From sequence record LC739533.1: a stretch of DNA of 64,000 nucleotides, one strand, 5' to 3'. The notes beneath the pieces were generated by a model that was given only the letters and a program-made list of their open reading frames with translations, was not told the DNA's origin and ran no database searches. A program made the position numbers and the translations under genes. Positions within the stretch are counted from its first letter, which is position 1. Every line of letters starts with the position of its first letter. This document shows, in pieces, positions 1-16,075 of the stretch. Source of the stretch: Escherichia phage phiWec179.

Positions 1-118
1 ACCCTACAGAAGAGCTAAACACGTCTTCCATAACAAGGCCCGTCTCGTCTCCATTTTCAGCCCAAGATAACCAAGCCTGATAAAAATCTAAAAGTAATTT
101 ACTTGATGCAATCTTCAT
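1..118 (-). CDS. paralog family A protein, N-terminal part only (gene runs off window start)
   Basis: ATG at 118 after GGAGAG; N-term MKIASSKLLLDFYQAWLSWAENG matches family A FYxxWLxW motif. Confidence 0.45.
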   Translation of the reverse strand, partial: MKIASSKLLLDFYQAWLSWAENGDETGLVMEDVFSSSVG

Positions 119-120
119 GC

Positions 121-309
121 TCACTCTCCTACACTTTCTGGTGTGCCATCCCAAGCACCTAAGACTTCTTTCAGGTGTGCACGGGGTTCTTTAAAATACT
201 CCTCCATTTTATCCAGAAGATCGTCTGTGTTTGGGCTGTATCCCAACATCCCACGTAAAACTCTTTCTTCTTGCAAGACCAACCATCTATGATAGCTTCG
301 AATCATAAT
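121..309 (-). CDS. hypothetical protein
   Basis: GGAGG + ATG at 309 (MIRSYHRW); tiled minus-strand ORF. Confidence 0.35.
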   Translation of the reverse strand: MMIRSYHRWLVLQEERVLRGMLGYSPNTDDLLDKMEEYFKEPRAHLKEVLGAWDGTPESVGE

Positions 310-721
310 ATTCCTCCAAGAGTTTCTCAATTCTCTGAACGGTCTTAGTATCCCAATAAACCTTATTAAAGTCAAGTGTTCCATGTGCATTTCTTTTTGT
401 TTCGAAGTAATAACCACCTTCCCGCTCCAAGCGATCACGGATCACTTCTATAAGATGATCCTTACCTATCTGCGTCAAACAATAATCATACTCTCCTTTT
501 AAGAGATCTATAGAAGGTTGACGGTTATCTCCAACCTGGGAAATCTTCCAATTTACCAATGATCCTTGTATACCAACGTCTGTCTGCTTCACAGCGAAGC
601 CTTTGGCACCCCAGCTACCCAACGTTACCACTAACAGGGCTTCTCCCGTCAGAGAGCGATTAAGCGTGTCGCTTCGGGGTTCACTTAAAGTTGAAAACCA
701 TTTAAGAATCTTTTTAAACAT
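287..721 (-). CDS. hypothetical protein
   Basis: GAGGAG + ATG at 721 (MFKKILKWF); tiled ORF. Confidence 0.45.
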   Translation of the reverse strand: MFKKILKWFSTLSEPRSDTLNRSLTGEALLVVTLGSWGAKGFAVKQTDVGIQGSLVNWKISQVGDNRQPSIDLLKGEYDYCLTQIGKDHLIEVIRDRLEREGGYYFETKRNAHGTLDFNKVYWDTKTVQRIEKLLEEYYDSKLS

Positions 722-782
722 TATATGCTCCTCTCGTTCAACATGCACAAACAATAACACCCTCCAAAGAGGGTGTCAATGA

Positions 783-992
783 TTAATCGATCACAAAAAA
801 CGTAGCGTTCAAACGTCTGAATGTCGCAGGGCTATATCCATGATCACACTCTTCAATGAACTGATCTGTAGTCTGATCGTAACTATAATACTGATCATTT
901 TGGAAATGGAAGGACGCACAGAACAAATCATTTCCTACAGTCCACACTGCCACAAAATTCTTACCGAACGGATAACCTTCAGCTACTTTCAT
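783..992 (-). CDS. hypothetical protein
   Basis: AGGAGGG + ATG at 992; tiled ORF. Confidence 0.4.
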   Translation of the reverse strand: MKVAEGYPFGKNFVAVWTVGNDLFCASFHFQNDQYYSYDQTTDQFIEECDHGYSPATFRRLNATFFVID

Positions 993-1003
993 TCTCCCTC
1001 CTC

Positions 1004-1273
1004 TTACCAAGAAACATACATAGAATACACAAAATCATTGCAGTCTGTCGTAAACGTCGCACTGCAACCTTGAGATCTGAATTTATCACAAATCCCGCGT
1101 ACAATCGAAGCTTGTAGTTCTTTACCTTTCGGTAGACCTAAAGCTTTTACTGGGTTCTGAATCGTCGTGCTGTAGTAACCCCCTTCTGCTGCCGTTGTAA
1201 TGAGGATTTCTGCTCGTTTGATATATTCAAAGTTCACAGAGTCAGCCAAAGCGTGTAAAGAATATGCATCCAT
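1004..1273 (-). CDS. hypothetical protein
   Basis: GAGGAGG + ATG at 1273. Confidence 0.45.
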   Translation of the reverse strand: MDAYSLHALADSVNFEYIKRAEILITTAAEGGYYSTTIQNPVKALGLPKGKELQASIVRGICDKFRSQGCSATFTTDCNDFVYSMYVSW

Positions 1274-1283
1274 TATAACCTCC

Positions 1284-1619
1284 TCAAGAACGATCGAGTT
1301 TCATTAAAAATACAATCATAGCTGCACGCAGTGGTTTATCGTCTTCACGGGACGGTACACCTTCTGTCTTCGCAAGCCAACCGCGAGGAAAACCATCTTC
1401 CCCTGTTACAGGGCTGATACAAATCCTATGTTTTACTATGATAGCCCAAGCATCTGCTGGATCATTGCAGTAATCATACCAAGTGTAATTGCCGTTGCAG
1501 TCATTCCCCACTGATCGTCCATCTGCATTGTGCGGATAACCTAAAGGCTTGACACCGTGGACTGCTGCAAACACACGCTTGTTGATTTCAAAATCACTCA
1601 TTACTCCATATTCTGTCAT
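1284..1619 (-). CDS. hypothetical protein
   Basis: AAGGAG + ATG at 1619; 111 aa, no motif recognised. Confidence 0.45.
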   Translation of the reverse strand: MTEYGVMSDFEINKRVFAAVHGVKPLGYPHNADGRSVGNDCNGNYTWYDYCNDPADAWAIIVKHRICISPVTGEDGFPRGWLAKTEGVPSREDDKPLRAAMIVFLMKLDRS

Positions 1620-1945
1620 GCTTTCTCCTTATCTTTGGATACTGGAAGGATATTGATCATAACAACCCCATCATATCCGTAGGTATCGTTGATTGTAGTT
1701 TCAACTTCACGTATGTCGGCTAAAGATGGAGGCCAATCTGTGAATTGCACATCAATATTACCTGTCCCGATAAAATTACCTTCTTCTGGTCTGTAGTTGT
1801 ATACAAACACAGCATCGTAACGAAACTCCTTCTGTTTGTTACGCTTCTTAAAAGTGCGGTCTAAGGCATAGATGCTTCCTATGACACATACCGCTACAGC
1901 AACAACAACAATGTTAAAATAGAGTTCTTGTAAAATTGCGCTCAT
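1616..1945 (-). CDS. hypothetical membrane-anchored protein
   Basis: N-terminal hydrophobic segment IVVVAVAVCVIGSIYAL; tiled ORF. Confidence 0.45.
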   Translation of the reverse strand: MSAILQELYFNIVVVAVAVCVIGSIYALDRTFKKRNKQKEFRYDAVFVYNYRPEEGNFIGTGNIDVQFTDWPPSLADIREVETTINDTYGYDGVVMINILPVSKDKEKA

Positions 1946-1947
1946 TG

Positions 1948-2277
1948 TTATTTACCCCCTTTCAGTTTTGATTTAACCCATGCCAACCGTTCTTTGTTCA
2001 TATGTTGCGTGCCGTGCTCATAATCCTGCATATAAGCTAAGTCACCAAATGGGTACAAGGTGTCTTGGAAATCTTTGAAAAGCATCTCTGCAAATGCTTC
2101 GTTAACTTCGTCAATTTCTTTTAATGAAAACCCTTGTTCCAGTAACCAGTAAGACAAAGAGTCGCAAAGCCTAACAAGTGTGCTGAAAGGTTTGACATTC
2201 TCTCTTTTCGGAGCCACTTTAGCCCAGGCTAACCATGCCTTAAGAAATTGTTGGATAATCACTTCGTTCTTTGTCAT
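1948..2277 (-). CDS. paralog family A protein (divergent member)
   Basis: AGGAG + ATG at 2277; FLKAWLAWAK...LYPF...KERLAWVKSKL resembles family A. Confidence 0.45.
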   Translation of the reverse strand: MTKNEVIIQQFLKAWLAWAKVAPKRENVKPFSTLVRLCDSLSYWLLEQGFSLKEIDEVNEAFAEMLFKDFQDTLYPFGDLAYMQDYEHGTQHMNKERLAWVKSKLKGGK

Positions 2278-2285
2278 TTTAGCTC

Positions 2286-2960
2286 CTATTTGATGTTCAG
2301 TTTGTTGAGCAGACGTTGAACCGTATAAGGGTGCCATGTGGTACTGCCACGAACGGTTTCAATTTTCTCTTCAGTAAAGATCTCTGCAATTCGAGTCAGA
2401 GATGCTCCTGCTTTCCTCATTAACGTCACTTTATCACGAAGCTTCTCTGCATACAAGACACTTTTATCATTTTTTCGAGGTTGTTTGTAGTCTTGACGTG
2501 ATTCTTTATACTTAGGGGAAGCAGATCCTAAAAGAACTCCTTTGCTCTTAGCTACTGCCAAACCTTTTTTGATACGATCTGCCATACCGCGAACTTCCTG
2601 TTCGGCGAGAACAGATAAAAGCTGGATAACCATCTTATCCGCATCTGGCATAATGGCGATCTTAACGTCGATCATTTCCAGCAAGATTGCTACCGAGGCG
2701 TTGTTACGACCTAAACGGTCCACTTTAGCTACCAGGAGGGTTGCTCCGGTAGCTTTACACATCTCAACAGCCTTGACAAGTTCTTTACGTTGCTTCCAGT
2801 CACCTTTACCTGAATAGAATTCAGAAAACTCTCCGATCACTTCAGCCTCCGGCACAGACTCCAAGAAGTAACGGATATCGTTCTCCTGACTCTGCATACC
2901 ATACTGGGCTTCGCCTTTCTTCTGTTTGGACAAACGGCTGTAAACAACAAACTTTTTCAT
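2286..2960 (-). CDS. serine recombinase (resolvase/invertase family)
   Basis: GAGGAG + ATG; YSRLS catalytic Ser box, VAKVDRLGR, MxIQLLSVLAEQE, C-terminal HTH; alignable by eye to gamma-delta resolvase. Confidence 0.8.
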   Translation of the reverse strand: MKKFVVYSRLSKQKKGEAQYGMQSQENDIRYFLESVPEAEVIGEFSEFYSGKGDWKQRKELVKAVEMCKATGATLLVAKVDRLGRNNASVAILLEMIDVKIAIMPDADKMVIQLLSVLAEQEVRGMADRIKKGLAVAKSKGVLLGSASPKYKESRQDYKQPRKNDKSVLYAEKLRDKVTLMRKAGASLTRIAEIFTEEKIETVRGSTTWHPYTVQRLLNKLNIK

Positions 2961-2970
2961 GATCAACTCC

Positions 2971-3177
2971 TCAATCGTTATTAGGCTTCCATTTTACAAA
3001 CTTGAAGCAGTTATTGTCAAGGAATTTATTGGCATCTTTTTCCTGTTTCCAAACGGTGCATTGTTCTTTAAGGGCTATCTGTTCATTCTGCACATCTGAT
3101 ACCACATCAGCAAGGAGGATCAGAAATCCCAAAAAGACCAACATCAATAACAGATTAAAGAAAGTTTGAAAACTCAT
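2971..3177 (-). CDS. small membrane protein
   Basis: GGAGG + ATG at 3177; hydrophobic FNLLLMLVFLGFLILL. Confidence 0.4.
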   Translation of the reverse strand: MSFQTFFNLLLMLVFLGFLILLADVVSDVQNEQIALKEQCTVWKQEKDANKFLDNNCFKFVKWKPNND

Positions 3178-3428
3178 GCGTCCTCCCATTTGATCCACAG
3201 AATCATTTCTTCAACGTAAACCTCTTTACCTTTGTTATTGATGAAAGTGTATTCTATGAACTCCGCTGTATACTTTTTGTTGTATTGCTCCGCTGCTGGG
3301 ATCGGACACTTTGTCATACGTGTCTCAACCCATTGACGATGAATCGTTGCCTTGTTTTTGGGGTCAAACGGGTGTAAATAGTGTGGTTCCCCACCCTGAC
3401 TTTGCCCCATCTTATTTTTCTTTGCCAT
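3174..3428 (-). CDS. hypothetical protein
   Basis: GGAGG + ATG at 3428 (MAKKNKMGQ). Confidence 0.4.
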   Translation of the reverse strand: MAKKNKMGQSQGGEPHYLHPFDPKNKATIHRQWVETRMTKCPIPAAEQYNKKYTAEFIEYTFINNKGKEVYVEEMILWIKWEDA

Positions 3429-3756
3429 GCTGCACCTCCTCCAGACGGTCATACACCCAAGCAAGACGATCGAAGTTTTTGTGTTGGGTGCCGGACTTCT
3501 TCTCAATCCAATAACAAGGAATCCAACCTGACAGATCCCACTCGCCATCGAACGGATAGTTCCATTCTAAACCTTCCGCTTCAAACTGCTCTACCATTTC
3601 ATCAGAAAGGGAAATATACAAATCTTGGTCTTCCCCGCAATACACTTCCACTGCATGACACAAACCGCAAGCTTTGATGTTTTCGTGCGGATCTTGGCCC
3701 ATAGCCTGATCCAACCACCACTCATAAAACTCCAGTAAAGCTTCACTTGATCTCAT
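3412..3756 (-). CDS. paralog family A protein
   Basis: GGAGGGG + ATG at 3756; LLEFYEWWL...GLCHAV...EQF...YPF...WV motif. Confidence 0.5.
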   Translation of the reverse strand: MRSSEALLEFYEWWLDQAMGQDPHENIKACGLCHAVEVYCGEDQDLYISLSDEMVEQFEAEGLEWNYPFDGEWDLSGWIPCYWIEKKSGTQHKNFDRLAWVYDRLEEVQHGKEK

Positions 3757-4129
3757 TTTCTTCCCCTCCCCCTTTTCCAATAAGCGGCGAAGCCGCGATC
3801 ATCGACTTATAGACAACTTCGGCTGTTCGGGTTAGCCCCGTCCAGTCCTTCGCTGCCTCCAACATTTCTGGGGTAGGCTCTTTCGGGACCAAGACATACC
3901 CTTCTGGGACACACATCCCACTCTCTTTCTTTTCGGCTTCTTCCGACATAACTTGCCACACTCCATAGCTGCAATTCTCGAACAAACAATAGAGTTCAGA
4001 TCCTTCATCATCCACGACAATGAAACAGTTCTCATCTGCTACTTTGGCATTATAGATCCGACCTATGGTCAAATAGTCTCGGACATTAATAAACTTAGAG
4101 GCAAGAAACTTCACACGAATGTTTTTCAT
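3743..4129 (-). CDS. hypothetical protein
   Basis: tiled minus-strand ORF, 128 aa. Confidence 0.45.
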   Translation of the reverse strand: MKNIRVKFLASKFINVRDYLTIGRIYNAKVADENCFIVVDDEGSELYCLFENCSYGVWQVMSEEAEKKESGMCVPEGYVLVPKEPTPEMLEAAKDWTGLTRTAEVVYKSMIAASPLIGKGGGEENEIK

Positions 4130-4365
4130 TTCTTAAACTCCGAAAAGCAACCCAAAGAGATGACCCCGCCATTATAGACGATAGCAAACTGGCACCCTGT
4201 CTTTGTGTCTGTGATGATGTAATCTAAAGCCCCAGTCATGCCAGTTTGAACAAAGCGATCCTTGGTTACAACTTTTGAGTCCGAGAAGCCGTTAACTTTC
4301 GGCACAGTGTCTGCCATAACAGTAGGAGTCACCAGAAACAATGCGATCAGTAATGCCTTTTTCAT
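4126..4365 (-). CDS. small secreted protein
   Basis: GGAGGG + ATG; signal-peptide-like MKKALLIALFLVTPTVMA. Confidence 0.5.
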   Translation of the reverse strand: MKKALLIALFLVTPTVMADTVPKVNGFSDSKVVTKDRFVQTGMTGALDYIITDTKTGCQFAIVYNGGVISLGCFSEFKK

Positions 4366-4376
4366 AAACCCTCCAG

Positions 4377-4691
4377 TTAGCCTTGAAATGAATTGCGACG
4401 ACCAATACGGGCACAGCGATCACCTTCATAAGAGGTGAAATCCAGACTCACTCGGAAGCCAGGGTGGGTATCAGAGATCCCCACATTCTTCACCCACATC
4501 TCGAAACTGCCGATATGTAAGGTCATAATGTTTACATACCATTCCAGCGTCACTTCTGTGCCGTCTACGCCTGTGATGTAGAAATCACGAGCGAAATGGG
4601 TGTCGTGCTTCTGTTTCTGACGCTCATACTTAGCGATTGCACCTTTCTCAACAGCCGCTTTCAGGATCACTTCTAACTCTTCTATTTGCAT
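4377..4691 (-). CDS. hypothetical protein
   Basis: AAGGAGAGAGA + ATG (MQIEE...). Confidence 0.45.
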   Translation of the reverse strand: MQIEELEVILKAAVEKGAIAKYERQKQKHDTHFARDFYITGVDGTEVTLEWYVNIMTLHIGSFEMWVKNVGISDTHPGFRVSLDFTSYEGDRCARIGRRNSFQG

Positions 4692-4745
4692 GTTCTCTCT
4701 CCTTTATTGTTGATGCAACCACTATAATATGTCTGACACTCTCTG

Positions 4746-4961
4746 TCAAATGTTTTCTGCTTCCAGCACTACTCTTTGGATCTGCACGTCATCAATGTTT
4801 GCGAGACAATTCCCTAAAATAAGCCCTGCTCGGAAAGGGGCTTGGAACTTGGAGGAAGCCCCCACTCGAATAGAATACTCCACACCGCACATAACATAAT
4901 CTACACGGTACATATTCAAGCCCATGAACATGAGTTCTTCTTCCGACTCTTCGATTTGCAT
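4746..4961 (-). CDS. hypothetical protein
   Basis: AAGAGGAG + ATG (MQIEE...), same initiation module as 4377..4691. Confidence 0.4.
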   Translation of the reverse strand: MQIEESEEELMFMGLNMYRVDYVMCGVEYSIRVGASSKFQAPFRAGLILGNCLANIDDVQIQRVVLEAENI

Positions 4962-4973
4962 TTTTATCTCCTC

Positions 4974-5528
4974 TTAGTTCCAACTAATAATGATGTGTTT
5001 GATAACCCCAAAAACGCTATATTCCGCTGTTGTCAACGTTACATCTAAACCTTTTGCACGCAACATTGCGGCTACTACATTCACCCCTTCTTTCTGTTTA
5101 TCCATCTCTTCGTAAGAAGAAGGGCTGTTACACAAACCAAAACTCGAAGGTTCAAAATATTTTTGGAATTTTCCCTGTTCTGCATAATCTTCAATCTCCA
5201 GCAGAACACAGTCTACCATTTCAGTAAAATGGGAATTTGCTTGCAGTGCTTTACTACGTAGTTTATCACGTAAACTTCCCACAAACCCTTCCTGATCTTC
5301 TGTTTGCTCTACTTCACAGAAAGGATGAAGTTCAGCCCAGTCCCAAACGTCTCCCTCTAAAGCAAACGTTGTGTTGTAGTTGAAGAAGGTGCAACGTGGA
5401 AGTTCCCCGTTGAAAGAATCCTTCAGCAAAATGTATTTCTTACCATTTGCGTGGAAGAGTTCCCCTTTGATAACCTTGCCTTTCTGGATATCGCTGTCGG
5501 TGGAACGGGTGCAGATAAACTGTTTCAT
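4974..5528 (-). CDS. hypothetical protein
   Basis: GAGGAG + ATG at 5528; 184 aa. Confidence 0.5.
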   Translation of the reverse strand: MKQFICTRSTDSDIQKGKVIKGELFHANGKKYILLKDSFNGELPRCTFFNYNTTFALEGDVWDWAELHPFCEVEQTEDQEGFVGSLRDKLRSKALQANSHFTEMVDCVLLEIEDYAEQGKFQKYFEPSSFGLCNSPSSYEEMDKQKEGVNVVAAMLRAKGLDVTLTTAEYSVFGVIKHIIISWN

Positions 5529-5582
5529 GATTTTCTCCTCTCTGTTTCGATGAGATGATTATGACAAAGACAGATCCTTCTG

Positions 5583-5903
5583 TCAACCAATTATTTCTTC
5601 TGCTATACGTTCTTTTACCCAGTTCACACGATCCACATTCAAATGACAACGGCTTCTTTCCGCTTCTAAGGTGTACTTTCCAAAATTACTGTTGAAAGGC
5701 AACACCATAACCAAATCTTTGCGGTAGAACTGCTCATGCATTTCATCCAGTACAGGTTCGTATCGTTCGCTTTCCCCCATATCGTAAAAATCATAGAGGT
5801 TCGAGCACAAACCTGTGCAACGGGTGAACGGTTCACCTTCAGGAGCACCAGCTTCCAACCATGCCAAATACGTGCGGTAAAATGTTAATAGTTCTTCGCT
5901 CAT
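5583..5903 (-). CDS. paralog family A protein
   Basis: AAGGAGAG + ATG at 5903; LLTFYRTYLAWLEAGAP...GLCSNL...HEQF...LPFN...HLNVDRVNWVKERI. Confidence 0.55.
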   Translation of the reverse strand: MSEELLTFYRTYLAWLEAGAPEGEPFTRCTGLCSNLYDFYDMGESERYEPVLDEMHEQFYRKDLVMVLPFNSNFGKYTLEAERSRCHLNVDRVNWVKERIAEEIIG

Positions 5904-6112
5904 TTCCACTCTCCTTCATGATAGTAAACCTCAAAAGAATAGTAAGTGAACATGCTCATTGTAACACCTCCCATTTCTGGATCAACGGAAGTGTTGTTAT
6001 ACATGTCAACTACTGCCTGACCCGCTGCTTTGGCATGTGCTGCCGAATCACAGGCACAAACATCTTTCTCCCACGGAAACTTGCCATCATACTTAAGACG
6101 GACAATCCACAT
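5900..6112 (-). CDS. hypothetical protein
   Basis: tiled ORF, 70 aa. Confidence 0.4.
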   Translation of the reverse strand: MWIVRLKYDGKFPWEKDVCACDSAAHAKAAGQAVVDMYNNTSVDPEMGGVTMSMFTYYSFEVYYHEGEWK

Positions 6113-6114
6113 GA

Positions 6115-6342
6115 TTATTCCTCCATCTTAAACCATTGAGGGAATACTTTACGGAAGACACGAGTTGCTTCCAAAAGGAATTCCAATTCTTTTTCCCGAT
6201 CTGCGTTCCAACCGTGTACTTTAACATTGATCGCCAGTGCATCAGCGCGCTGACTCAATGCTTGGCAAATCGGATCGCGCAACACTACCGCATCATAAAA
6301 CTGACAAACAGCTTCAAGTTCATACCAATTATAAGCAGCCAT
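6115..6342 (-). CDS. hypothetical protein
   Basis: tiled ORF, 75 aa. Confidence 0.4.
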   Translation of the reverse strand: MAAYNWYELEAVCQFYDAVVLRDPICQALSQRADALAINVKVHGWNADREKELEFLLEATRVFRKVFPQWFKMEE

Positions 6343-6668
6343 TATTCATTCTCCTCTGCAATACGATCTTTAACCCAATTAATCCTGTCCACGTTCAGGT
6401 GACAGGCATCTGCATCTGACTCTAAAACATATGCATCGTAGTTCTCATTGAAAGGGAGTTCTTGACTCAACCCTTTATAGTGGAACTGTGCGTGCATCTC
6501 ATCTGACAAGGTTATTATAATGAGATTGAAGCCATCCCTGTGCACATAATCGAACAAGTTGGCACACAAACCCACACTTGGCAGAAACGGTCTGCCATAA
6601 GGAGCACCATTTTCAATCCATGCCAGATACTTTTTGTAAAACTTCATCAACTCTTCACTTGTTTTCAT
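6342..6668 (-). CDS. paralog family A protein
   Basis: GAGGTGG + ATG; LMKFYKKYLAWIENGAP...GLCANL...HAQF...LPFN...HLNVDRINWVKDRI. Confidence 0.55.
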   Translation of the reverse strand: MKTSEELMKFYKKYLAWIENGAPYGRPFLPSVGLCANLFDYVHRDGFNLIIITLSDEMHAQFHYKGLSQELPFNENYDAYVLESDADACHLNVDRINWVKDRIAEENE

Positions 6669-6906
6669 TTAGCCACCTCGTCAGTTTTTCTTGCTCTTTG
6701 TTTGCGCGTTCTAAGCTTCTAAACTTTAAACAAAGGGGAAGAGTATCCACACCCATGCACAAGCTTTTATCTAAGCTGTGCTCCCCAACCAACCAAAGAG
6801 AATATGTTTGAACATCTAACCCATAGTTTCTGTCTTTCCATAATCTCACCCCAAGAACATCAAAAGGCGCTTCCGCGACTAAAGAAAGAAACCGATCTTT
6901 ATTCAT
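6655..6906 (-). CDS. hypothetical protein
   Basis: tiled ORF, 83 aa. Confidence 0.4.
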   Translation of the reverse strand: MNKDRFLSLVAEAPFDVLGVRLWKDRNYGLDVQTYSLWLVGEHSLDKSLCMGVDTLPLCLKFRSLERANKEQEKLTRWLNENK

Positions 6907-6907
6907 G

Positions 6908-7252
6908 TTACACCACCTCTACCACATGAATGGACACATCGTCACGGTAGTATTTATCATCCCCGTAAATCTGGCCCAAACGTACACATGCGTCGTAGAT
7001 AGAAAGGGCTGGGATCTGATAAGTTTTAATACTGCCGTTATCTTTTGTATACCGGATCTCAAAAAGACGCATCACATCTTCAGCTACCACCTCAAAAGTG
7101 GCGCAGCCCATTCTCAACTCAATAACACAATCTGTTCCGTCATCACTATTGATCCAGTAGTAGTCCACATCCTCGTCTGTATTTGTCACAGGGTATTGCT
7201 TACCAACAGTGAAATATGGAACGGAAGATGATACGCACAAAAGTTTAGTCAT
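6908..7252 (-). CDS. hypothetical protein
   Basis: GGAG + ATG at 7252 (MTKLLCVSSS). Confidence 0.4.
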   Translation of the reverse strand: MTKLLCVSSSVPYFTVGKQYPVTNTDEDVDYYWINSDDGTDCVIELRMGCATFEVVAEDVMRLFEIRYTKDNGSIKTYQIPALSIYDACVRLGQIYGDDKYYRDDVSIHVVEVV

Positions 7253-7312
7253 TTTTCTCTCCTTATTGTCTTGATGTGGTAAGCATACCATACAGAAATC
7301 AGGTGTCAAGCT

Positions 7313-8034: not shown

Positions 8035-8276
8035 TCTACCTCCTCATTAGAAATTACAGACAAAGAGAGCGTAGCAAAACCTACAGAGATTGCTCGCCCC
8101 TCATCAATAGCTTCGTTAATCATATAACTTACCAAACTGGTAGTAGCAAAATCACCATCTTCAGTAAGGCGAAACACTTCTTGATCCGGTTCGGTGATGA
8201 AAGGCAGAAGGTATTCTTTCTTTGTATCCAGGAAACGTACTACATGGAATAAACGGGTTTTATTTCCGTAAGACAT
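8031..8276 (-). CDS. hypothetical protein
   Basis: AAGGAG + ATG at 8276 (MSYGNKTRLF). Confidence 0.4.
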   Translation of the reverse strand: MSYGNKTRLFHVVRFLDTKKEYLLPFITEPDQEVFRLTEDGDFATTSLVSYMINEAIDEGRAISVGFATLSLSVISNEEVE

Positions 8277-8541
8277 TCTTTCTCTCCTTTGCTTTTGGAT
8301 ACTCCCAACCCTCTGGGAGATCTTCGTTAAGCATCCACTCAAAAGGCCAGCGACAATAGCTATGCCACTTTCCATCCAAGTAGAGGCAATCTTCATCTAC
8401 TGGTCCACAAGGATTGATAACTACAACACACCCTTTTGCTCGCCAATACTGAACTATTTCGGGGTAAAAACAAGAAACATCAGTCCACTCCCAAATACGT
8501 TCATCATTCAAACGATACGCTGCTGGTAATGTTTCTTTCAT
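8260..8541 (-). CDS. hypothetical protein
   Basis: tiled ORF, 93 aa, Trp/Cys-rich. Confidence 0.4.
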   Translation of the reverse strand: MKETLPAAYRLNDERIWEWTDVSCFYPEIVQYWRAKGCVVVINPCGPVDEDCLYLDGKWHSYCRWPFEWMLNEDLPEGWEYPKAKERKNVLRK

Positions 8542-8545
8542 CCGA

Positions 8546-8992
8546 TCAAACCTCTGTCAAAGAGAAACGCCAATCTTTACTACTACCCACACCAAGGAAG
8601 TAATAGTCTCCGGTACTAACGGAAATACGCCAAGCGGAAATCCAGTCAGGAATCTCTGGCTTATGGCTGTAGCCATAGCGATCACCACTTGAATCTGTTG
8701 CAATATAATTAACAAATTCAGGCACATCTAAAGTTTCACCTTGATACTCTACACGCTTGAAGCCATCTTCCACTTGTTCCTCCCCTTCTACCAGAAGGGC
8801 AAGAAGCTGAATGTGCGGACAAGTGAAATCTTGCCCTGGATAACGTGAACGGATATCTGTAAGCAGAGCGATCACCGCGTCTGCCAGATTTTGGTAATCT
8901 TCATACTTCACGAACGTCCCTTTTGTAGGATCATCCGAACACAAAAGCCAAGCGTCGTTCGGATTCACTCCATAATGTTTAACTTTAGACAT
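8546..8992 (-). CDS. hypothetical protein
   Basis: tiled ORF, 148 aa. Confidence 0.5.
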   Translation of the reverse strand: MSKVKHYGVNPNDAWLLCSDDPTKGTFVKYEDYQNLADAVIALLTDIRSRYPGQDFTCPHIQLLALLVEGEEQVEDGFKRVEYQGETLDVPEFVNYIATDSSGDRYGYSHKPEIPDWISAWRISVSTGDYYFLGVGSSKDWRFSLTEV

Positions 8993-9072
8993 ACACCCTC
9001 CTATTCGTACATTAAGAAGCCCAAAATAATAATCAGGGCAGCGAAAATAATAATCTCTATCATATCACATTC

Positions 9073-9285
9073 TCACTTATTCATAGAAGCAGGAAGAATC
9101 GAATGACACTTCCTGCACACTTTCACTTTAACAAGATTATCACTCCCTTCTGCGTAAATCAAAGCTTCTTTCAACTTATTCCCACACGAACAATACTCTG
9201 TTAGGTCCAGGGGAACATCAAAAAGCCCGTAATCGCTCTCATATTGTTTCTTACACAACGAAACCACTCTTGTAAAGTAAGACAT
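9073..9285 (-). CDS. hypothetical Cys-rich protein (possible zinc ribbon)
   Basis: CSCGNK ... CRKCHS cysteine pairs. Confidence 0.4.
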   Translation of the reverse strand: MSYFTRVVSLCKKQYESDYGLFDVPLDLTEYCSCGNKLKEALIYAEGSDNLVKVKVCRKCHSILPASMNK

Positions 9286-9288
9286 TTC

Positions 9289-9510
9289 TTATTCCTCGAT
9301 CACTTCTACATCCCAAGAGAAGAATACATAGTCACAACCTTCCCAAACATCATCCTCCAGGATCTCACAACCTTCCACTTTAGCCATCTCTTCTTGGGAA
9401 ACGAAGAATGTTTGCAGATCATCGCTGAAAAGGTGTGCTTCAACAACAAAAGGAAGCTGAACGTTCTCGAAACCTACATAGCCTGTAACATCAATAATCT
9501 TAATTTTCAT
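9289..9510 (-). CDS. hypothetical protein
   Basis: tiled ORF, 73 aa. Confidence 0.4.
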   Translation of the reverse strand: MKIKIIDVTGYVGFENVQLPFVVEAHLFSDDLQTFFVSQEEMAKVEGCEILEDDVWEGCDYVFFSWDVEVIEE

Positions 9511-9701
9511 GATGGTTCTCCTTTATAAAGTAAACCTCTTAGTTCGCATTCTGCCACCAATAGACGGTTGGCTTGATTGTCCATAGACACGTCTATCTCC
9601 ACACTCCAAGCATTAATATACACTTCGTTGATCTTTGCGTCAAGCATTTGTGCAACTAAAGCTACGGCTCCAGCATATTCAAGTTTGATCTCTATAATCA
9701 T
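9507..9701 (-). CDS. hypothetical protein
   Basis: tiled ORF, 64 aa. Confidence 0.4.
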   Translation of the reverse strand: MIIEIKLEYAGAVALVAQMLDAKINEVYINAWSVEIDVSMDNQANRLLVAECELRGLLYKGEPS

Positions 9702-9985
9702 TTAAGATGATCCCTTACCCATTGGATACGGACAGCATTGAGATGAGAACCATCTTCCTTGTATTCTTTCGCGTAATCATCCCAATCCTTATTGAACGGG
9801 AGTTCTGGGTCCAACCCCGCAGCTTCAAACTGTTTTGACATTTCATACAGCAAATCATCATCACAATAACCGAAGAAATAGAGATTAGTACATAAACCCC
9901 ATTCACGGCGGAAAGGATTACCGTCTGGCGCTCCCGCGTCCACCCAATCTGCGTAAGCTTGATAGAACTCTCGTAATGTTTTCAT
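9698..9985 (-). CDS. paralog family A protein
   Basis: AAGGGGTGG + ATG at 9985; LREFYQAYADWVDAGAP...GLCTNL...SKQF...LPFN...HLNAVRIQWVRDHL. Confidence 0.55.
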   Translation of the reverse strand: MKTLREFYQAYADWVDAGAPDGNPFRREWGLCTNLYFFGYCDDDLLYEMSKQFEAAGLDPELPFNKDWDDYAKEYKEDGSHLNAVRIQWVRDHLK

Positions 9986-10140
9986 AACCACCCCTTATCT
10001 TGATAACCTTTAGAAAACCCTTCTTCCCACTCTTGAAACTGTTCAGGATGTTTATTGGGATCGTAAGGATTGTGGCGGCAAAACATGCCGAATTTATAAC
10101 CCTGTGCGTAGCCTTTATCGAATGCGTTCTTACTCTCCAT
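9982..10140 (-). CDS. small protein with ribosome-modulation-factor-like motif (tentative)
   Basis: GGAGAG + ATG at 10140; 52 aa; stop overlaps next start (TTATGA); KGYAQGY..G...NPY......W..GF pattern resembles Rmf. Confidence 0.35.
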   Translation of the reverse strand: MESKNAFDKGYAQGYKFGMFCRHNPYDPNKHPEQFQEWEEGFSKGYQDKGWL

Positions 10141-10152
10141 TGTTCTCTCCTC

Positions 10153-10425
10153 TTATTCAACGTTCCAGAAAACACCCCGTTTATCTGTAATGTCTATACG
10201 ATACTCCTCCCACATCTTAGTTACAAGAGGTCTTTTCACATAACCGTGAAAATAAACTTCAGAATGCACCCCGTAAGCTGTGTAATTGTCAACAGTCCCT
10301 TCTACCTTGAAGATCACCATGTCTCCACCTAAAAATCTTTCAAAAACCAAGGTGAAACAGTCGAACTTAACAACGTCTCCCTCGAAGAGGGAGATATCTT
10401 TCACCTTACAGAAATGTCCGATCAT
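10153..10425 (-). CDS. hypothetical protein
   Basis: tiled ORF, 90 aa. Confidence 0.45.
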   Translation of the reverse strand: MIGHFCKVKDISLFEGDVVKFDCFTLVFERFLGGDMVIFKVEGTVDNYTAYGVHSEVYFHGYVKRPLVTKMWEEYRIDITDKRGVFWNVE

Positions 10426-10434
10426 TTTCTCTCC

Positions 10435-10626
10435 TTAATACACATCACCTACAAACCAGATTTCTGGATCGCCATACTGATCCTTCTCGTAAGATTTGTA
10501 GACACTACAGCAATATTTCAAAACACCGTCCACAAGGATTGTTGATCTTTCTTCTGGAATCTCTGTGATCTCCCCTTTGCGGGTTTCGAAGATGGTATCA
10601 CCCTTTTCAATTAGTCGGATTTTCAT
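10435..10626 (-). CDS. hypothetical protein
   Basis: tiled ORF, 63 aa. Confidence 0.4.
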   Translation of the reverse strand: MKIRLIEKGDTIFETRKGEITEIPEERSTILVDGVLKYCCSVYKSYEKDQYGDPEIWFVGDVY

Positions 10627-10627
10627 A

Positions 10628-10825
10628 TCATACCTCCCTCAATGCGATTAGTGCGTTCACCAGATTATCAACACCTTGAGCATCCAGGGCAATAACATCA
10701 AAGTTAAACCCTGTATCAGTTGGGACTTTACGTGTTATGGTGTAATAATCCTCTGCATGACGTTCAACATATGCGTATGGGTAACTGGTGTTCGGATCAT
10801 GTTTTACGCGAATAGATGTTTTCAT
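10628..10825 (-). CDS. hypothetical protein
   Basis: tiled ORF, 65 aa. Confidence 0.4.
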   Translation of the reverse strand: MKTSIRVKHDPNTSYPYAYVERHAEDYYTITRKVPTDTGFNFDVIALDAQGVDNLVNALIALREV

Positions 10826-11295
10826 GTTTTGTTCTCCTCTTTAGTTGCAACACGGAACTTATTAGCTTCTCTCACCTGGAACATGAAGTCTTTCTTCTTC
10901 ATAATCCCGATGGACATTTCATCCAGTTCTTCTGGATGGATCTGGAGATTACGGCGATCGGACAGGAACCAAGATTTCTCCCACCAGAAGCGTTGATCCT
11001 CCTCCTTGTGGTGCTTGTATTCCTCTTTTTCTTTTTCTGTGAGGATCTTGAAGCGATTCTTTCCTTCCCAACGCATTGCTGTGTTAAAAGGAATACCGTT
11101 ATCCCCATTATACACTGCGGAAGTAGGAAGGCAATAGCCAGTTTCTGCGTCGATCATTTGGTAGTGAAATTCACATTCCAGTTCAACGTACTCTAAATCC
11201 CCATAAAAATCACTGATCAAGAAAGCAATGTAAGTTTCACCATGTTCGGGAACAAATTCTTGCTTTGTCAACATCTCCAGTTTCAAACCTGCCAT
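10822..11295 (-). CDS. hypothetical protein
   Basis: tiled ORF, 157 aa. Confidence 0.5.
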   Translation of the reverse strand: MAGLKLEMLTKQEFVPEHGETYIAFLISDFYGDLEYVELECEFHYQMIDAETGYCLPTSAVYNGDNGIPFNTAMRWEGKNRFKILTEKEKEEYKHHKEEDQRFWWEKSWFLSDRRNLQIHPEELDEMSIGIMKKKDFMFQVREANKFRVATKEENKT

Positions 11296-11307
11296 TGCTT
11301 TCTCCTT

Positions 11308-11541
11308 TTAGTCGAACCAGTTATATTCAGAAGGGTAACGCGCATAGTTTGGCTTATACCCCAGCCTTTTCATCTTAACAGACATACGAGTGAAGCCAAA
11401 GGTTTTTTTGCCCTTAGACATAAACTTCTTCCCACTCTTCATTGGCTTCTTAGGGTCTTTGATCGCCTGGTTTAACGCTCGCGCAAGCCACAAAGTGTAT
11501 GCGCTCGGTGCTTGGTTAACTTTCATCTTGTTACCCTTCAT
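11308..11541 (-). CDS. hypothetical basic protein
   Basis: 77 aa, Lys-rich. Confidence 0.45.
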   Translation of the reverse strand: MKGNKMKVNQAPSAYTLWLARALNQAIKDPKKPMKSGKKFMSKGKKTFGFTRMSVKMKRLGYKPNYARYPSEYNWFD

Positions 11542-11552
11542 ACGATCTCCTC

Positions 11553-11765
11553 TTATAAAATTTCAAGTTCTTCGAGTGTTTCTTTCAGGGAAACTGGCAA
11601 ATCACACTCCACATCCAGCATCGAAACCAACCAAGAGGTGGCTTCGGCTAACTTCTGGTAATCATCATACAACACATAACCCCCTTCGTCAACCTCTACG
11701 ATGCAACGATAAGATGCAAAAGGGTTTTTGCTCATTTCTTCAATGTCATAACGTTCAACAACCAT
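11553..11765 (-). CDS. hypothetical protein
   Basis: ATG at 11765 (MVVERYD); shares YxDYQxLAxA segment with 8546..8992. Confidence 0.4.
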   Translation of the reverse strand: MVVERYDIEEMSKNPFASYRCIVEVDEGGYVLYDDYQKLAEATSWLVSMLDVECDLPVSLKETLEELEIL

Positions 11766-12067
11766 TATTTCACCTCTGACCAATCAACAGTAATACATTG
11801 ATAAGCTTGATGATTTATGTCCAATTCAATATAAACCACAAGCCCACGCTCGCGGAGTGCTGTTACCACCATATACATTAACTCGCGCTGTCTGGCGATC
11901 CCATCTTGGGAAAGAGGACGATTACAGAAGCCAAAATCAGAGGGCGTGAAATCCCGTTGGTAATTTCCCGCCCGTGCTTCTGAAAAACACGTCTCAATAA
12001 CCTCTTCAATAGGAAAACCGATGGAAGCTTCTTTGGCAATACTGCGTAACTGTTCGGTCAAATTCAT
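11765..12067 (-). CDS. hypothetical protein
   Basis: tiled ORF, 100 aa. Confidence 0.45.
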   Translation of the reverse strand: MNLTEQLRSIAKEASIGFPIEEVIETCFSEARAGNYQRDFTPSDFGFCNRPLSQDGIARQRELMYMVVTALRERGLVVYIELDINHQAYQCITVDWSEVK

Positions 12068-12132
12068 TTCATTTCTCCTCTCGTCTGTGTATGCAAAGAT
12101 TATCTACCAACGTGATCCTTATGTCAAGCTAT

Positions 12133-12645
12133 TTATTCAAAATAAACTTTAACTTGTGCCGTGCTGTAGCGATTGTAAATCTCGACCACGGCTTTAGCAT
12201 TATCTTCTTTATAGGATTCTGCCAGATCTTCCGCATCTCGGATATTTCCGGCAACACCTACGAGAACAAGATCCACCATTACAAGATATTTTTTATCTTC
12301 TGGACTCTCTTGAGAAGGCTCTTGCACTGGTTCTTCCTTTGGTTCTGGTGGCAAACCAACCTCTGCCTCAACATAAGAGTCAAACCAAGTGATATCGTTA
12401 AAATGCTTTAACTCGTGTTTGGACAGCAGCATACCACAATCAACGAAAGCACCTGCATCAGCTTCAAAGACATGCCCTTCAAATGTTTGGAACTTAACCA
12501 CATCCCCTTTTTCTGTTGTCTCCAACACCAGGAAGTGTTTTGGCCCCAGCAGATCTGAAATCTTTCGGTTCAGATTGACAGCTTCACGGAACGCATTGTA
12601 CTCTTTTGTATTTTTGAATTTATAAGAATGCCCTTGAATAAACAT
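12133..12645 (-). CDS. hypothetical protein (tandem paralog 1)
   Basis: 170 aa; same layout as 12658..13176 (N-domain, GLPP linker, C-terminal VEIY..STA). Confidence 0.5.
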   Translation of the reverse strand: MFIQGHSYKFKNTKEYNAFREAVNLNRKISDLLGPKHFLVLETTEKGDVVKFQTFEGHVFEADAGAFVDCGMLLSKHELKHFNDITWFDSYVEAEVGLPPEPKEEPVQEPSQESPEDKKYLVMVDLVLVGVAGNIRDAEDLAESYKEDNAKAVVEIYNRYSTAQVKVYFE

Positions 12646-12657
12646 AGTAGTCTCCTC

Positions 12658-13176
12658 TTAGTCAAATATCACATTACTTACGAGTTTCGCTGTGCTACGC
12701 AGAGTATAAATCTCCACAAGCTTCCCTGGACTCTCTTTCTTCGCTTTCGTGGCTCTTTCTTGTGCCTCTGAAAAAGATGATACAGTATGCACTACTACGT
12801 AGTCAACAATAACTGCAAACTTTTTAGGCACAATATCGGCATCAGGACGATCGTCGTGCGCAGAAACATCCTTACCTGGCTGTGGTGCCAGCGGCGGCAA
12901 GCCTGTCATTAACAGTGCACCTCCATCAAAGAAATATCCGATTTCATCGTGTGCAATAAGGAAGCGATCCATTTGAGCATCACCTACTCCCTGATCCCAG
13001 AACACTTTCCTATCTTCTACGAAGATGATAAGGGACAGGACATTCCCATGAACATCCGTGTTAACTGGTTGGAACCAGTGATCCCCAATCGCTTCAGCCA
13101 ATTGTTTAGAGATTGATTGAAACAACTCTTGGTACGTGCCTTGTCTGAAACGATATACATTATTTGTTTTAAACAT
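12658..13176 (-). CDS. hypothetical protein (tandem paralog 2)
   Basis: 172 aa; paralog of 12133..12645. Confidence 0.5.
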   Translation of the reverse strand: MFKTNNVYRFRQGTYQELFQSISKQLAEAIGDHWFQPVNTDVHGNVLSLIIFVEDRKVFWDQGVGDAQMDRFLIAHDEIGYFFDGGALLMTGLPPLAPQPGKDVSAHDDRPDADIVPKKFAVIVDYVVVHTVSSFSEAQERATKAKKESPGKLVEIYTLRSTAKLVSNVIFD

Positions 13177-13198
13177 TAGTGTCTCCTCTTGTATTAAA

Positions 13199-13657
13199 TT
13201 ATTGTTCTACTTCACGCAGCCACGCTAAAGCCTCTTCTGGGGATTTATCGAAGTCGTTGAGCAGTTCCTGCTCCAACTCCTCTTTCATTTCATTCAGCAC
13301 TTGTAGTTGACGTGCCTTTTTCCACAAGGCTACACGATAATCAACACCTTGTGGTGCTTCTTCTGCCACTTTTACATTACCTGTCGGGCAGCGAGGAAGA
13401 TAGTCTTCAATATCTTCCAAGGCACGGCGATAATTGGGGTCCATGTAGTTCACACGAACACGATTACATTCTAACAAAGTGGCACGGAACACTTCATAAC
13501 GTGTTTCGGATAGAATGTGTTTCACACAGACAGCACCAGTATCTTCTGAAATTACGCTATACACTTCCAGTAGGCTGGAGTTTCTCTTGACATAATCTGT
13601 AACGCATTGCACATATGCTCCCAATATTGTGGAAGCTCTCGCTGGTTTTTCGCTCAT
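13199..13657 (-). CDS. hypothetical protein
   Basis: tiled ORF, 152 aa. Confidence 0.5.
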   Translation of the reverse strand: MSEKPARASTILGAYVQCVTDYVKRNSSLLEVYSVISEDTGAVCVKHILSETRYEVFRATLLECNRVRVNYMDPNYRRALEDIEDYLPRCPTGNVKVAEEAPQGVDYRVALWKKARQLQVLNEMKEELEQELLNDFDKSPEEALAWLREVEQ

Positions 13658-13893
13658 TTTCTACCTCCCCATAATGCCACCATTTTATTAAAGATGGAAG
13701 CGCGTCGTGCACGAGATGCTAACATACGATTGGCTTCTTCGTAGCCATAGAACAAACGATCTGTCAATACCAACGCCAGTGTCTTCTCTTGCAGAGACTG
13801 GCAATTATGTTCAGGACGACAGTCGTGCCCTGCATCGAAGTACAGATTGTTCAGATAGTTGTTTGCTCTCTCATTCTGCTTTGCAGTGATCAC
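13654..13893 (-). CDS. hypothetical protein
   Basis: tiled ORF, 79 aa. Confidence 0.4.
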   Translation of the reverse strand: MITAKQNERANNYLNNLYFDAGHDCRPEHNCQSLQEKTLALVLTDRLFYGYEEANRMLASRARRASIFNKMVALWGGRK

Positions 13894-13902
13894 GATCCCT
13901 CC

Positions 13903-14133
13903 TTAATGAACAATTTCATATTCGTGAGGAAGGAAAACATAATCTTCCCCTTCACCTGCATCTTCTTCATCCCAGAAGAAACCTGGTATCTCAATCATCT
14001 TCGAAAAGCGCACATGCGCCAACCCACTATACCCTATCTGTGCATTCAGCACAACGGGTAACTCTGCACCAATCAGACCTACATACCCGCAAGCGGTTTC
14101 AATACGAATTTTCATACGTTTTATGTTATGCAT
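13903..14133 (-). CDS. hypothetical protein
   Basis: tiled ORF, 76 aa. Confidence 0.4.
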   Translation of the reverse strand: MHNIKRMKIRIETACGYVGLIGAELPVVLNAQIGYSGLAHVRFSKMIEIPGFFWDEEDAGEGEDYVFLPHEYEIVH

Positions 14134-14335
14134 CTTTCATATTCTCCACGAAGTGACGAGCAACAGGATTCCCGTAGAAATATTCATTGATGAAATCGAT
14201 CACACAGGTTTCACTGCCTGTCACAACGGACGGTGCGAAGTTTCGGAACTGCACGAGTACACGACTTGCGTTAGCAAGGGCGTTCACACGATCAGTATTA
14301 GCTAAATACAAGGATACAGTTTTCATATTCGACAT
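14126..14335 (-). CDS. hypothetical protein
   Basis: tiled ORF, 69 aa. Confidence 0.4.
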   Translation of the reverse strand: MSNMKTVSLYLANTDRVNALANASRVLVQFRNFAPSVVTGSETCVIDFINEYFYGNPVARHFVENMKDA

Positions 14336-14406
14336 TTCAATCTCCTCATTGGCTATCTGTTATGCGCGGTATTGCGCCTCTCATGCAAACAAGTATACAG
14401 ACATTT

Positions 14407-14775
14407 TTATTCAATGCAAGCATTATTTGCATCTTCGATGCGATCTTTCACCCATTGAAGACGTAACGTGTTGGTATGACACGCCAAGTCTATACACTCT
14501 GAAAGGTAATCCATGCAATCTGCATTGAACGGAAGATTGTAGTCCAGTTTTGCACATGTAAATTGTTTCCTCATTTCGTATTTCAAACTATCCAACAAAC
14601 GATCACGCCATCTTTTATCTTCTTCTCTAATTACCTCACCAACAAAATCATCTACATAATCTACCAGACAACCACACAAGCCACTCGTTGTGCGATTCAT
14701 TGCCGGATGGTTGGCAATCCATGCTTTATAGAATCGTATTAATGTTGCACTGCTCAACGGAATGTTACTTTTCAT
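14407..14775 (-). CDS. paralog family A protein
   Basis: AAGGAGG + ATG at 14775; LIRFYKAWI...GLCGCL...RKQF...LPFN...RLQWVKDRI. Confidence 0.5.
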   Translation of the reverse strand: MKSNIPLSSATLIRFYKAWIANHPAMNRTTSGLCGCLVDYVDDFVGEVIREEDKRWRDRLLDSLKYEMRKQFTCAKLDYNLPFNADCMDYLSECIDLACHTNTLRLQWVKDRIEDANNACIE

Positions 14776-15130
14776 TATTGCCTCCTTCACAATCCTGGAT
14801 ACGATCTTCTACCCATTGCACACGCAGTCGGTTGAGATGACATTTTCTGTTTTCACATTCTTCCTCGTAGTCGAAGAAGTTGGTATTGAAAGGTGTGGTT
14901 TTAGACAACCCTGCATACATAAACTGTACCAGCATTTCATCAGCTAAAGCTTCACGCATCTCCCAAAACTGATCCACATCGGCACCATGTATCGGACACA
15001 ATACGTCCCATGCAAAATTGCCTAAACATACGCACAAGCCATTCGCTGTGTTCACCAACTCACTACGGTGAGCCATCCAATTCTTATAGAACATCAGAAG
15101 AGTATCACTACTCAAGGGAATATTTTTCAT
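14765..15130 (-). CDS. paralog family A protein
   Basis: AAGGAG + ATG; LLMFYKNWM...GLCVCL...VQF...TPFN...HLNRLRVQWVEDRI. Confidence 0.55.
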   Translation of the reverse strand: MKNIPLSSDTLLMFYKNWMAHRSELVNTANGLCVCLGNFAWDVLCPIHGADVDQFWEMREALADEMLVQFMYAGLSKTTPFNTNFFDYEEECENRKCHLNRLRVQWVEDRIQDCEGGNNEK

Positions 15131-15131
15131 A

Positions 15132-15512
15132 TCAGGCTCCTTTACGATTATGGAAACAATCTTTCACTCGCTCTTGCACCCACTCTACACGAAGCTTGTT
15201 TTCATGCGCTCTGTTGTGGTTATGCTCTTGCACATAGTCTTCGTAGTTCACATTAAAGGGAACACTGACAGACAATCCTGCACAACGAAATTGTTTCTTC
15301 ATTTCTTTTAATGTCGCATCACTTAGGGCACAAAGCTGATTTGCCTGTTCCTCACTGAAGTTACTGTCCCACATCTCATCCCAGATAAAACTATCCAAGC
15401 ATACACATAACCCATGCCTTGTGCGCTCTTTAGTATGATGATCAGCAAGCCAACTTTCATAGAAAGCTAACAACACCGGACTACTCAACGGAACATTTTT
15501 ACTCTCTTGCAT
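15132..15512 (-). CDS. paralog family A protein
   Basis: AGGAG + ATG at 15512; LLAFYESWL...GLCVCL...KKQF...VPFN...RVEWVQERV. Confidence 0.5.
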   Translation of the reverse strand: MQESKNVPLSSPVLLAFYESWLADHHTKERTRHGLCVCLDSFIWDEMWDSNFSEEQANQLCALSDATLKEMKKQFRCAGLSVSVPFNVNYEDYVQEHNHNRAHENKLRVEWVQERVKDCFHNRKGA

Positions 15513-16055: not shown

Positions 16056-16075
16056 GATGAGAATGATTATTATTC
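16056..16075. promoter_or_regulatory. second operator-like site (GATGAGAATGATTATTATTC)
   Basis: same half-site family; preceded by CTATAAAAT as at 15687. Confidence 0.25.

Follow-up and report, generated by a model that had tools for sequence, protein, structure and literature searches.

Nine divergent members of a large, uncharacterised phage protein family in one arm of Escherichia phage phiWec179

The nine genes and their setting

The stretch of Escherichia phage phiWec179 analysed here (LC739533.1; 64,000 nucleotides, hereafter the window) carries nine related genes on the minus strand of positions 1 to 15,512. That they are real genes is established, as is their membership of a large and still uncharacterised domain family specific to phages, PHROG 2510, which may be called 'N4 gp3-like'. 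The first 16 kb of the window is 100% identical to Escherichia phage phiWec181 (LC739534.1; Phapecoctavirus, Stephanstirmvirinae), with window position 1 corresponding to position 21569 of that record. All nine coordinates are minus-strand open reading frames (ORFs) that coincide exactly with GenBank coding sequences of LC739534.1, and each of the eight complete genes has an ATG start with a Shine-Dalgarno-like motif upstream.

All-against-all BLASTP of the eight complete copies makes every pair significant, with E-values from 2e-3 to 1e-38 and identities of 23-54%. The weakest pair is 1948-2277 with 14407-14775 (E 2e-3), and the strongest is 5583-5903 with 6342-6668 (E 1e-38). All eight also match phrog_2510 over nearly their full length (residues ~1-110, E 2e-18 to 2e-30), which is evidence independent of profiles built from the window copies. 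For the copy cut by the window edge, the fragment at 1-118 reaches E 2e-4 with the family hidden Markov model (HMM), and the full 117-amino-acid protein reaches E 4.6e-26 against an HMM built without it. The eight complete copies and copy 1 are thereby confirmed as true homologues and real genes. The original prediction had placed nine genes with a common motif at just these positions, a claim that the exact coding-sequence matches, the pairwise significance and the phrog_2510 matches bear out; the motif it quoted equals the alignment consensus. The members are as follows.

1..118 (-): member 1, N-terminal 39 codons; the gene continues past the window edge, and the full gene (117 amino acids) lies at 21333-21686 of LC739534.1
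1948..2277 (-): member 2, 109 amino acids; most divergent copy, with VRLC replacing GLC, directly downstream of a serine recombinase gene; phrog_2510 E 4e-20
3412..3756 (-): member 3, 114 amino acids; small insertion ahead of helix 4; phrog_2510 E 2e-22
5583..5903 (-): member 4, 106 amino acids; 54% identity with member 5; phrog_2510 E 3e-30
6342..6668 (-): member 5, 108 amino acids; most central copy, structure modelled; phrog_2510 E 2e-30
9698..9985 (-): member 6, 95 amino acids; shortest copy; phrog_2510 E 4e-27
14407..14775 (-): member 7, 122 amino acids; third gene of a three-gene head-to-tail array; phrog_2510 E 9e-24
14765..15130 (-): member 8, 121 amino acids; middle gene of the array, 43% identity to members 7 and 9; phrog_2510 E 2e-19
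15132..15512 (-): member 9, 126 amino acids; first gene of the arm, fold variant with a long helix 3; phrog_2510 E 2e-18

Even the most divergent copy, 1948-2277, is linked by BLASTP to 6342-6668 (E 2e-9) and to N4 gp3 (E 2e-8). The family HMM finds no tenth member in a six-frame translation of the 64-kb window, where the next best match has E 0.84, and no member in the 21.5 kb upstream of the window. Across the whole phage genome, tblastn identifies nine places.

Most complete copies additionally match phrog_6418, phrog_27059 and phrog_2176, and all four PHROGs are labelled 'unknown function'. Judged by curated gathering scores, Pfam-A and NCBIfam contain no family for the window proteins: Pfam gives no match at E <0.03 and NCBIfam gives none at all. 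When 121 family members are scanned singly against both libraries, matches below 0.01 are confined to isolated single members, with no recurrent family, and library scans of multi-domain relatives are likewise without a match. No PADLOC-DB defence profile reaches E <= 1 for any copy, and DUF551 (PF04448), a fusion partner elsewhere, has no match in the window proteins. Alignment, HMM construction and database searching, which are among the checks proposed for the original prediction, support the homology statistically and recover no well-characterised family. The statement that this is not a named family holds for Pfam, NCBIfam and PADLOC; it needs correction in that PHROG 2510 and its relatives already catalogue the family.

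The arm at 1-15512 runs leftward as 49 small, tightly packed genes, all annotated 'hypothetical protein'. GC skew is negative throughout and shifts at about 16 kb. The three-gene array forms the first genes after a 1.5-kb stretch that lacks ORFs, in the order 15132-15512, 14765-15130, 14407-14775. The first two are separated by a 1-nt gap, and an 11-nt overlap joins the end of member 8 to the start of member 7.

The stretch between the array and the next gene, 15513-17057 (~1.5 kb), has no annotated gene, no ORF longer than 74 amino acids, no tRNA and no Rfam match, and the GC skew changes within it. It contains perfect or near-perfect inverted repeats at 16340-16532, T/G-rich direct repeats at 16550-16750 with units such as TCGTTAGTTAGTTGGTTG and GTTATCGTTA, and, at 17023-17043, a hairpin resembling a bidirectional terminator. 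Several related genome records begin within this stretch, which makes it a possible site of a genome end, an origin or the early control region.

Other arm genes mostly belong to PHROGs without known function, apart from two. A homologue of phage P22 NinX lies at 1284-1619 (-) (PF10765, E 4e-12); the arm therefore has gene content in common with the nin regions of lambdoid phages, which are also sites of the family. The other gene, at 2286-2960 (-), encodes a serine recombinase or DNA invertase (Pfam Resolvase N-terminal domain, E 6e-17; phrog_125 'DNA invertase'). It immediately precedes family member 1948-2277 on the upstream side and lies amid the accessory genes of what is a virulent myovirus. 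The arm also holds further paralogous pairs by BLASTP: 4974-5528 with 11765-12067 (E 2e-11), 9289-9510 with 13903-14133 (E 3e-9), and the adjacent genes 12133-12645 and 12658-13176 (E 2e-9), the first of which weakly matches a PHROG labelled 'goF mRNA metabolism modulator' (E 7e-6). Upstream of the window, adjoining the arm on the opposite strand, positions 1-17000 of LC739534.1 are annotated with a dTDP-rhamnose pathway (rfbA-, rfbC- and rfbD-like genes and a partial dTDP-glucose 4,6-dehydratase), a Ser/Thr phosphatase and a CobB/Sir2-type NAD-dependent deacylase. Modification of DNA or surface sugars, together with host manipulation, is a possible function of that segment.

Predicted fold and conserved residues

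AlphaFold2 models the central copy, 6342-6668, from a 42-sequence alignment with a mean pLDDT (predicted local distance difference test) of 95.3 and a pTM (predicted template modelling score) of 0.88. Five helices are predicted, at residues 5-19, 34-45, 50-64, 77-85 and 93-107, and the fold is predicted to be a compact bundle of these helices around a conserved aromatic core. The model of the longest copy, 15132-15512 (pLDDT 90.6), has the same all-helical topology; in it an insertion lengthens helix 3 in the hairpin formed with helix 2, and a shorter first loop forms a small helix.

Solved structures offer no relative. A family profile search of PDB sequences gives a best E of 0.22, Foldseek finds nothing in the PDB at E <= 0.001, and no sequence or fold similarity appears to solved Ocr, ArdA, Acb2, Tad1, Tad2, AsiA, anti-CRISPRs or other PDB entries. 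In a viral predicted-structure library, good matches (TM-scores up to 0.89) are confined to further phage proteins that are themselves uncharacterised. Likewise, the copies in phage PTXU04 were annotated 'Unknown' by the authors of a CRISPRi-ART screen using HHpred (PMC11879866).

Conservation is sharp by comparison with the low overall identity. With residues numbered as in 6342-6668 and a profile of 121 diverse sequences, C35, P72, F73 and R95 are invariant in all 121 and occur in all window copies. F10, Y11, W98, G33, L34, L7, V99, Q61 (116 sequences), N92 (115) and F62 are conserved in at least 95%, and E57 (111) and Y80 in 92%. Position 90 is His in 101 sequences (83%) and mostly Tyr or Phe in the rest, with Arg in some members. 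Among the window copies F10, L34, C35, E57, P72, F73, Y80, H90, N92, R95, W98 and V99 are invariant, and the full protein of copy 1 has D at the N92 position. The resulting signature is F10-Y11, G33-L34-C35, E57/Q61-F62, P72-F73, Y80 and (H/Y)90-x-N92-x-x-R95-x-x-W98-V99. C35, E57, Q61, P72, F73, Y80, N92 and R95 are kept in N4 gp3, in gp09 of the Ralstonia phage phiAp1 and in every repeat of the three-domain protein P0045. The conserved aromatic residues are spaced i, i+3/4, i+7 on the predicted helices, as for a core.

The motif (H/Y)xNxxR was also compared with the Fic (HxFx[D/E]GNGRxxR) and HEPN (Rx4-6H) motifs. Spacing and order differ from both, the His is not invariant (101/121), and no fold match was found, so neither assignment was kept.

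The conserved polar residues invite a second reading, in which Cys35, Glu57, Gln61, Tyr80, His/Tyr90, Asn92 and Arg95 form a pocket and the domain is a ligand-binding or catalytic module. The pocket could bind a small molecule, for example as a 'sponge' for an immune signalling nucleotide, or support Cys-dependent chemistry, with paralogues differing in ligand preference. Several features fit this idea: four signature residues are invariant and Q61, N92, E57 and Y80 exceed 90% even across very distant phages, the lone invariant Cys is unusual as a purely structural residue at 25-30% overall identity, it lies at the N-terminal end of predicted helix 2, and tandem multi-domain forms would increase capacity, as for a sponge. 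However, neither fold nor sequence resembles the solved sponges in the PDB (Acb2, Tad1, Tad2) or any enzyme, and the replacement of His90 by Tyr, Phe or Arg in some members makes a Cys-His catalytic pair unlikely. Moreover, the conserved polar residues occupy the same faces of the predicted helices as the conserved hydrophobics, and a structural network of salt bridges and hydrogen bonds would give the same pattern. Overall, a functional pocket is the main alternative to the preferred explanation but is judged unlikely. More doubtful still is a bolder version, in which this very widespread new phage fold uses a Cys/Arg-centred pocket to capture or modify a conserved host molecule, such as immune signalling nucleotides or a universal host protein, and up to nine specialised versions, carried by large virulent phages such as phiWec181, act as a broad-spectrum counter-defence toolkit.

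Calculated isoelectric points (pI) range from 4.3 to 6.7 and are mostly acidic. Small, acidic, multi-copy proteins from an early region recall DNA mimics, which would block restriction-modification (RM) or bacteriophage exclusion (BREX) enzymes in the manner of Ocr or ArdA. Such a general anti-restriction role appears very improbable. Phages related to this one are reported to be exceptionally RM-sensitive although phi92 and PaulScherrer carry the family, and this sensitivity argues against at least a general role of that kind. In addition, neither in sequence nor in fold does the family match Ocr, ArdA or another anti-restriction protein of solved structure, net charge is modest, and one copy has a pI of 6.7.

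Distribution and turnover

The family is not peculiar to this phage. An exhaustive profile search of 1.84 billion cluster representatives, with family size counted as clusters at 50% identity, returns 1,900 proteins at E <= 1e-3, of which 853 reach E <= 1e-10. With one copy as the query, tblastn hits 259 phage records from alpha-, beta- and gamma-proteobacterial hosts, namely Escherichia, Klebsiella, Salmonella, Citrobacter, Erwinia, Pectobacterium, Rhizobium, Achromobacter, Delftia, Burkholderia, Ralstonia, Xanthomonas and Pseudomonas. Among the named members are N4 gp3 (YP_950481; HMM E 1e-16), phiAp1 gp09, phi92 gp010 and PTXU04 gp85, gp86 and gp87 (HMM E 1e-27 to 1e-33), and carriers include phi92, the BASEL phage PaulScherrer and podoviruses of 42-75 kb.

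Some phage records of 146-151 kb are 87-93% identical to this arm and bear other host names: records labelled 'Campylobacter phage' (e.g. B15, C3, A145), 'Pseudomonas phage PsgM04F' and 'Acinetobacter phage vB_AbaM_ABPW7'. These host labels look doubtful, or look like contamination or enrichment artefacts.

The domain also occurs in larger proteins. Tandem fusions with two or three domains per polypeptide make up 19 of the 180 family proteins examined. In gp48 of the vequintavirus Av-05, DUF551 (residues 14-73, E 4e-9) is followed by the family domain as the C-terminal half. In E. coli lambdoid prophages, the domain is the N-terminal half of 'putative prophage proteins' of 158-210 amino acids, whose C-terminal halves are shuffled among strains. 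The prophage genes occupy the nin region, bounded by the replication genes on one side and the Q antiterminator on the other; they adjoin hok and share the region with RusA, NinX-type and DUF968 genes. YbcN of E. coli DLP12, a nin-region 'DNA base-flipping protein', was considered as a homologue for its similar position and set aside, as neither family HMM matches any ORF of the DLP12 nin region.

Genomic positions elsewhere are comparable. In N4, gp3 is placed with the early genes at the left end, having gp2 and gp15/16 on either side, and phiAp1 gp09 is downstream of annotated host promoters and upstream of the primase gene. Together with the position in this arm, these placements suggest, though do not prove, early expression. 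Apart from the family itself, no neighbour gene is common to N4, phiAp1, the prophages and this arm.

These positions bear on another alternative, that the proteins act within the phage as small regulators or chaperones of transcription, replication or recombination, with copies working at different phage targets or times. Many nin-region genes encode small regulators or chaperones of the phage's own programme, and the nin-region site of the prophage members, beside RusA, NinX-type, DUF968 and Q genes, fits this pattern. So does N4, where the gene lies with early genes whose products form the middle transcription machinery and one middle-promoter opening factor is still unidentified, as does the presence of a NinX homologue and a serine recombinase in this arm. 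Against it, the acidic pI argues against nucleic-acid binding, Pfam and fold searches detect no helix-turn-helix or other DNA-binding family, and no gene consistently adjoins the family across phages. Furthermore, copy sets vary between near-identical phages, which is unexpected for core regulators, and knock-down of three PTXU04 copies carries no fitness cost. In that CRISPRi-ART screen, PTXU04_00085, 86 and 87 were all called 'Not Fit', with gene fitness values of -1.99, -1.51 and -2.32 (PMC11879866, supplementary files 8 and 16), showing each homologue to be singly dispensable on its laboratory host. A phage-internal role is, on balance, improbable.

Recent duplication does not account for the nine copies: identity is 54% for the closest pair and 40-43% among the array genes. 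Copy 9698-9985 is closer to gp87 of the unrelated podophage PTXU04 (51% identity) than to any paralogue in its own genome. Therefore, of the original claim of an expansion within one phage arm, the location stands, since all nine genes lie in a single leftward arm of small genes, but recent in-genome expansion does not, given identities of at most 54%.

Close relatives differ in their copy sets. Phage phiWec188 (94% nucleotide identity) has nine copies; it lacks 14407-14775 and has one extra copy elsewhere. ESCO13 (87% nucleotide identity) has seven, and three of the eight complete copies have an ESCO13 orthologue; that of 3412-3756 is 93% identical, with a ratio of nonsynonymous to synonymous substitution rates (dN/dS) of 0.14, and 14407-14775 has an ESCO13 counterpart at 90% identity. 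By tblastn against the phage database, the 9698-9985 allele is at least 95% identical in 5 records and below 60% in all others, the next best being PTXU04 gp87 at 51%, while the 15132-15512 allele is at least 90% identical in 7 records, at least 80% identical in 8 and below 60% in all others. The bimodal identity of the two copies examined is cassette-like allele replacement. Sequence comparison establishes the nine copies as old, divergent lineages kept in a mosaic accessory arm; phages gain, lose and swap them in the manner of cassettes.

Proposed role and relation to known systems

The explanation preferred here, and held tentatively, is that the proteins are small cytoplasmic helical binding modules, made early, that act on host or host-defence proteins. 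Each copy, a soluble, mostly acidic protein of about 100 amino acids, would be produced early in infection and would bind its target in the cytoplasm through protein-protein contact. Targets might be those of host take-over, or else toxins or proteins of host immunity. The scaffold would depend on the conserved residues, and specificity on regions that vary: the loop that follows helix 1, the hairpin of helices 2 and 3, the helix 4-helix 5 link and the C-terminal tail. On a laboratory host, no copy should be essential by itself.

Early or accessory placement in unrelated phages supports this binding-module explanation, as do the differences in copy sets between close relatives and the dispensability of the PTXU04 homologues. 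Tandem domains, together with fusions to DUF551 and to variable C-terminal modules, are consistent with a modular binder. From these features we infer protein binding and a host or defence target. The original prediction of a diversifying host-interaction or anti-defence function, with a target for each copy, is compatible with the evidence, and anti-defence is a plausible form of it.

Several results weigh against this explanation. Polar residues that stay constant across very distant phages fit one common ligand or catalytic site at least as well as separate targets for each copy. The 'Not Fit' calls in PTXU04 could reflect redundancy, not an accessory role. We infer early expression from gene position only, and a scan of the arm start for the sigma-70 consensus shows no enrichment over shuffled sequence. 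Family turnover equals that of unrelated arm genes (3/8 against 16/40 with an ESCO13 orthologue), so within the arm the family does not stand out as fast-evolving. Finally, the codon-level selection analysis proposed alongside the diversification claim turns out negative: orthologue dN/dS against phiWec188 is 0.02-0.61, indicating purifying selection for every copy, so there is no gene-wide positive selection.

The same measurements raise the alternative that the genes are mobile, mildly constrained cassettes of little or no benefit, spread by recombination in a permissive, non-essential region. In its favour, the whole arm is mosaic, with about 40% of genes, family or other, having an ESCO13 orthologue; the PTXU04 homologues are dispensable; and the family's median dN/dS exceeds that of neighbouring genes (0.36 against 0.12; Mann-Whitney p 0.03, from small samples of n = 7 and 38). 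Nevertheless, dN/dS remains well below 1, up to nine copies are kept per genome, and strict conservation of the signature extends over 1,900 clusters and across very different phage types, among them the 42-75 kb podoviruses with their limited genome space. Cassettes of this neutral kind are accordingly considered quite improbable.

Whatever its role, the family is large yet absent from Pfam and NCBIfam, and it has no solved structural relative. It is also tractable, with high-confidence structure predictions, a sharp signature with invariant Cys and Arg, and members in model phages (N4 gp3, PTXU04 gp85-87, BASEL isolates). Assigning a function to one member would annotate thousands of phage genes and explain the retention of up to nine divergent copies. 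If the target were a host immune component, a major counter-defence family would be added; if the toolkit proposal were true, this would be one of the largest anti-immunity families without a Pfam entry. Even with no immune target, the family is a component that recurs widely in the early and nin regions of phages.

Among known systems, phrog_2510 is the same family as the window proteins, but its entry has no function, name or structure, so membership does not explain the mechanism. N4 gp3, phi92 gp010 and PTXU04 gp85, gp86 and gp87 are homologues of similar form: like the window copies, they are single-domain proteins (95-104 amino acids) with the C...PF...HxNxxRxxW signature, and they lie in early or left-end accessory regions, as in this arm. 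In PTXU04 the three copies are even arranged head to tail, as in 14407-15512. Copy number is one to three in these phages, compared with nine here, and the PTXU04 'Not Fit' result is the sole experimental datum for their members; the papers found on N4 early proteins, phrog_2510, Phapecoctavirus paralogues, Stephanstirmvirinae early genes and the rV5 genome give no functional description of N4 gp3 or other members. In the nin-region and DUF551-type proteins of lambdoid prophages and Vequintavirinae, the domain is fused, whereas it stands alone in the window copies; DUF551 and the other fusion partners are likewise of unknown function.

Accessory multigene families in virulent phages, and hypervariable early 'accessory regions' that hold anti-defence genes, are a familiar phenomenon. 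The present family has no similarity to solved anti-defence proteins, and it is far more widespread, with a more strongly conserved signature, than typical anti-CRISPR or anti-RM proteins. It does resemble the genes of anti-defence accessory regions in being small and early-region, in the presence, absence and allele swapping seen among close relatives, and in its dispensability on laboratory hosts.

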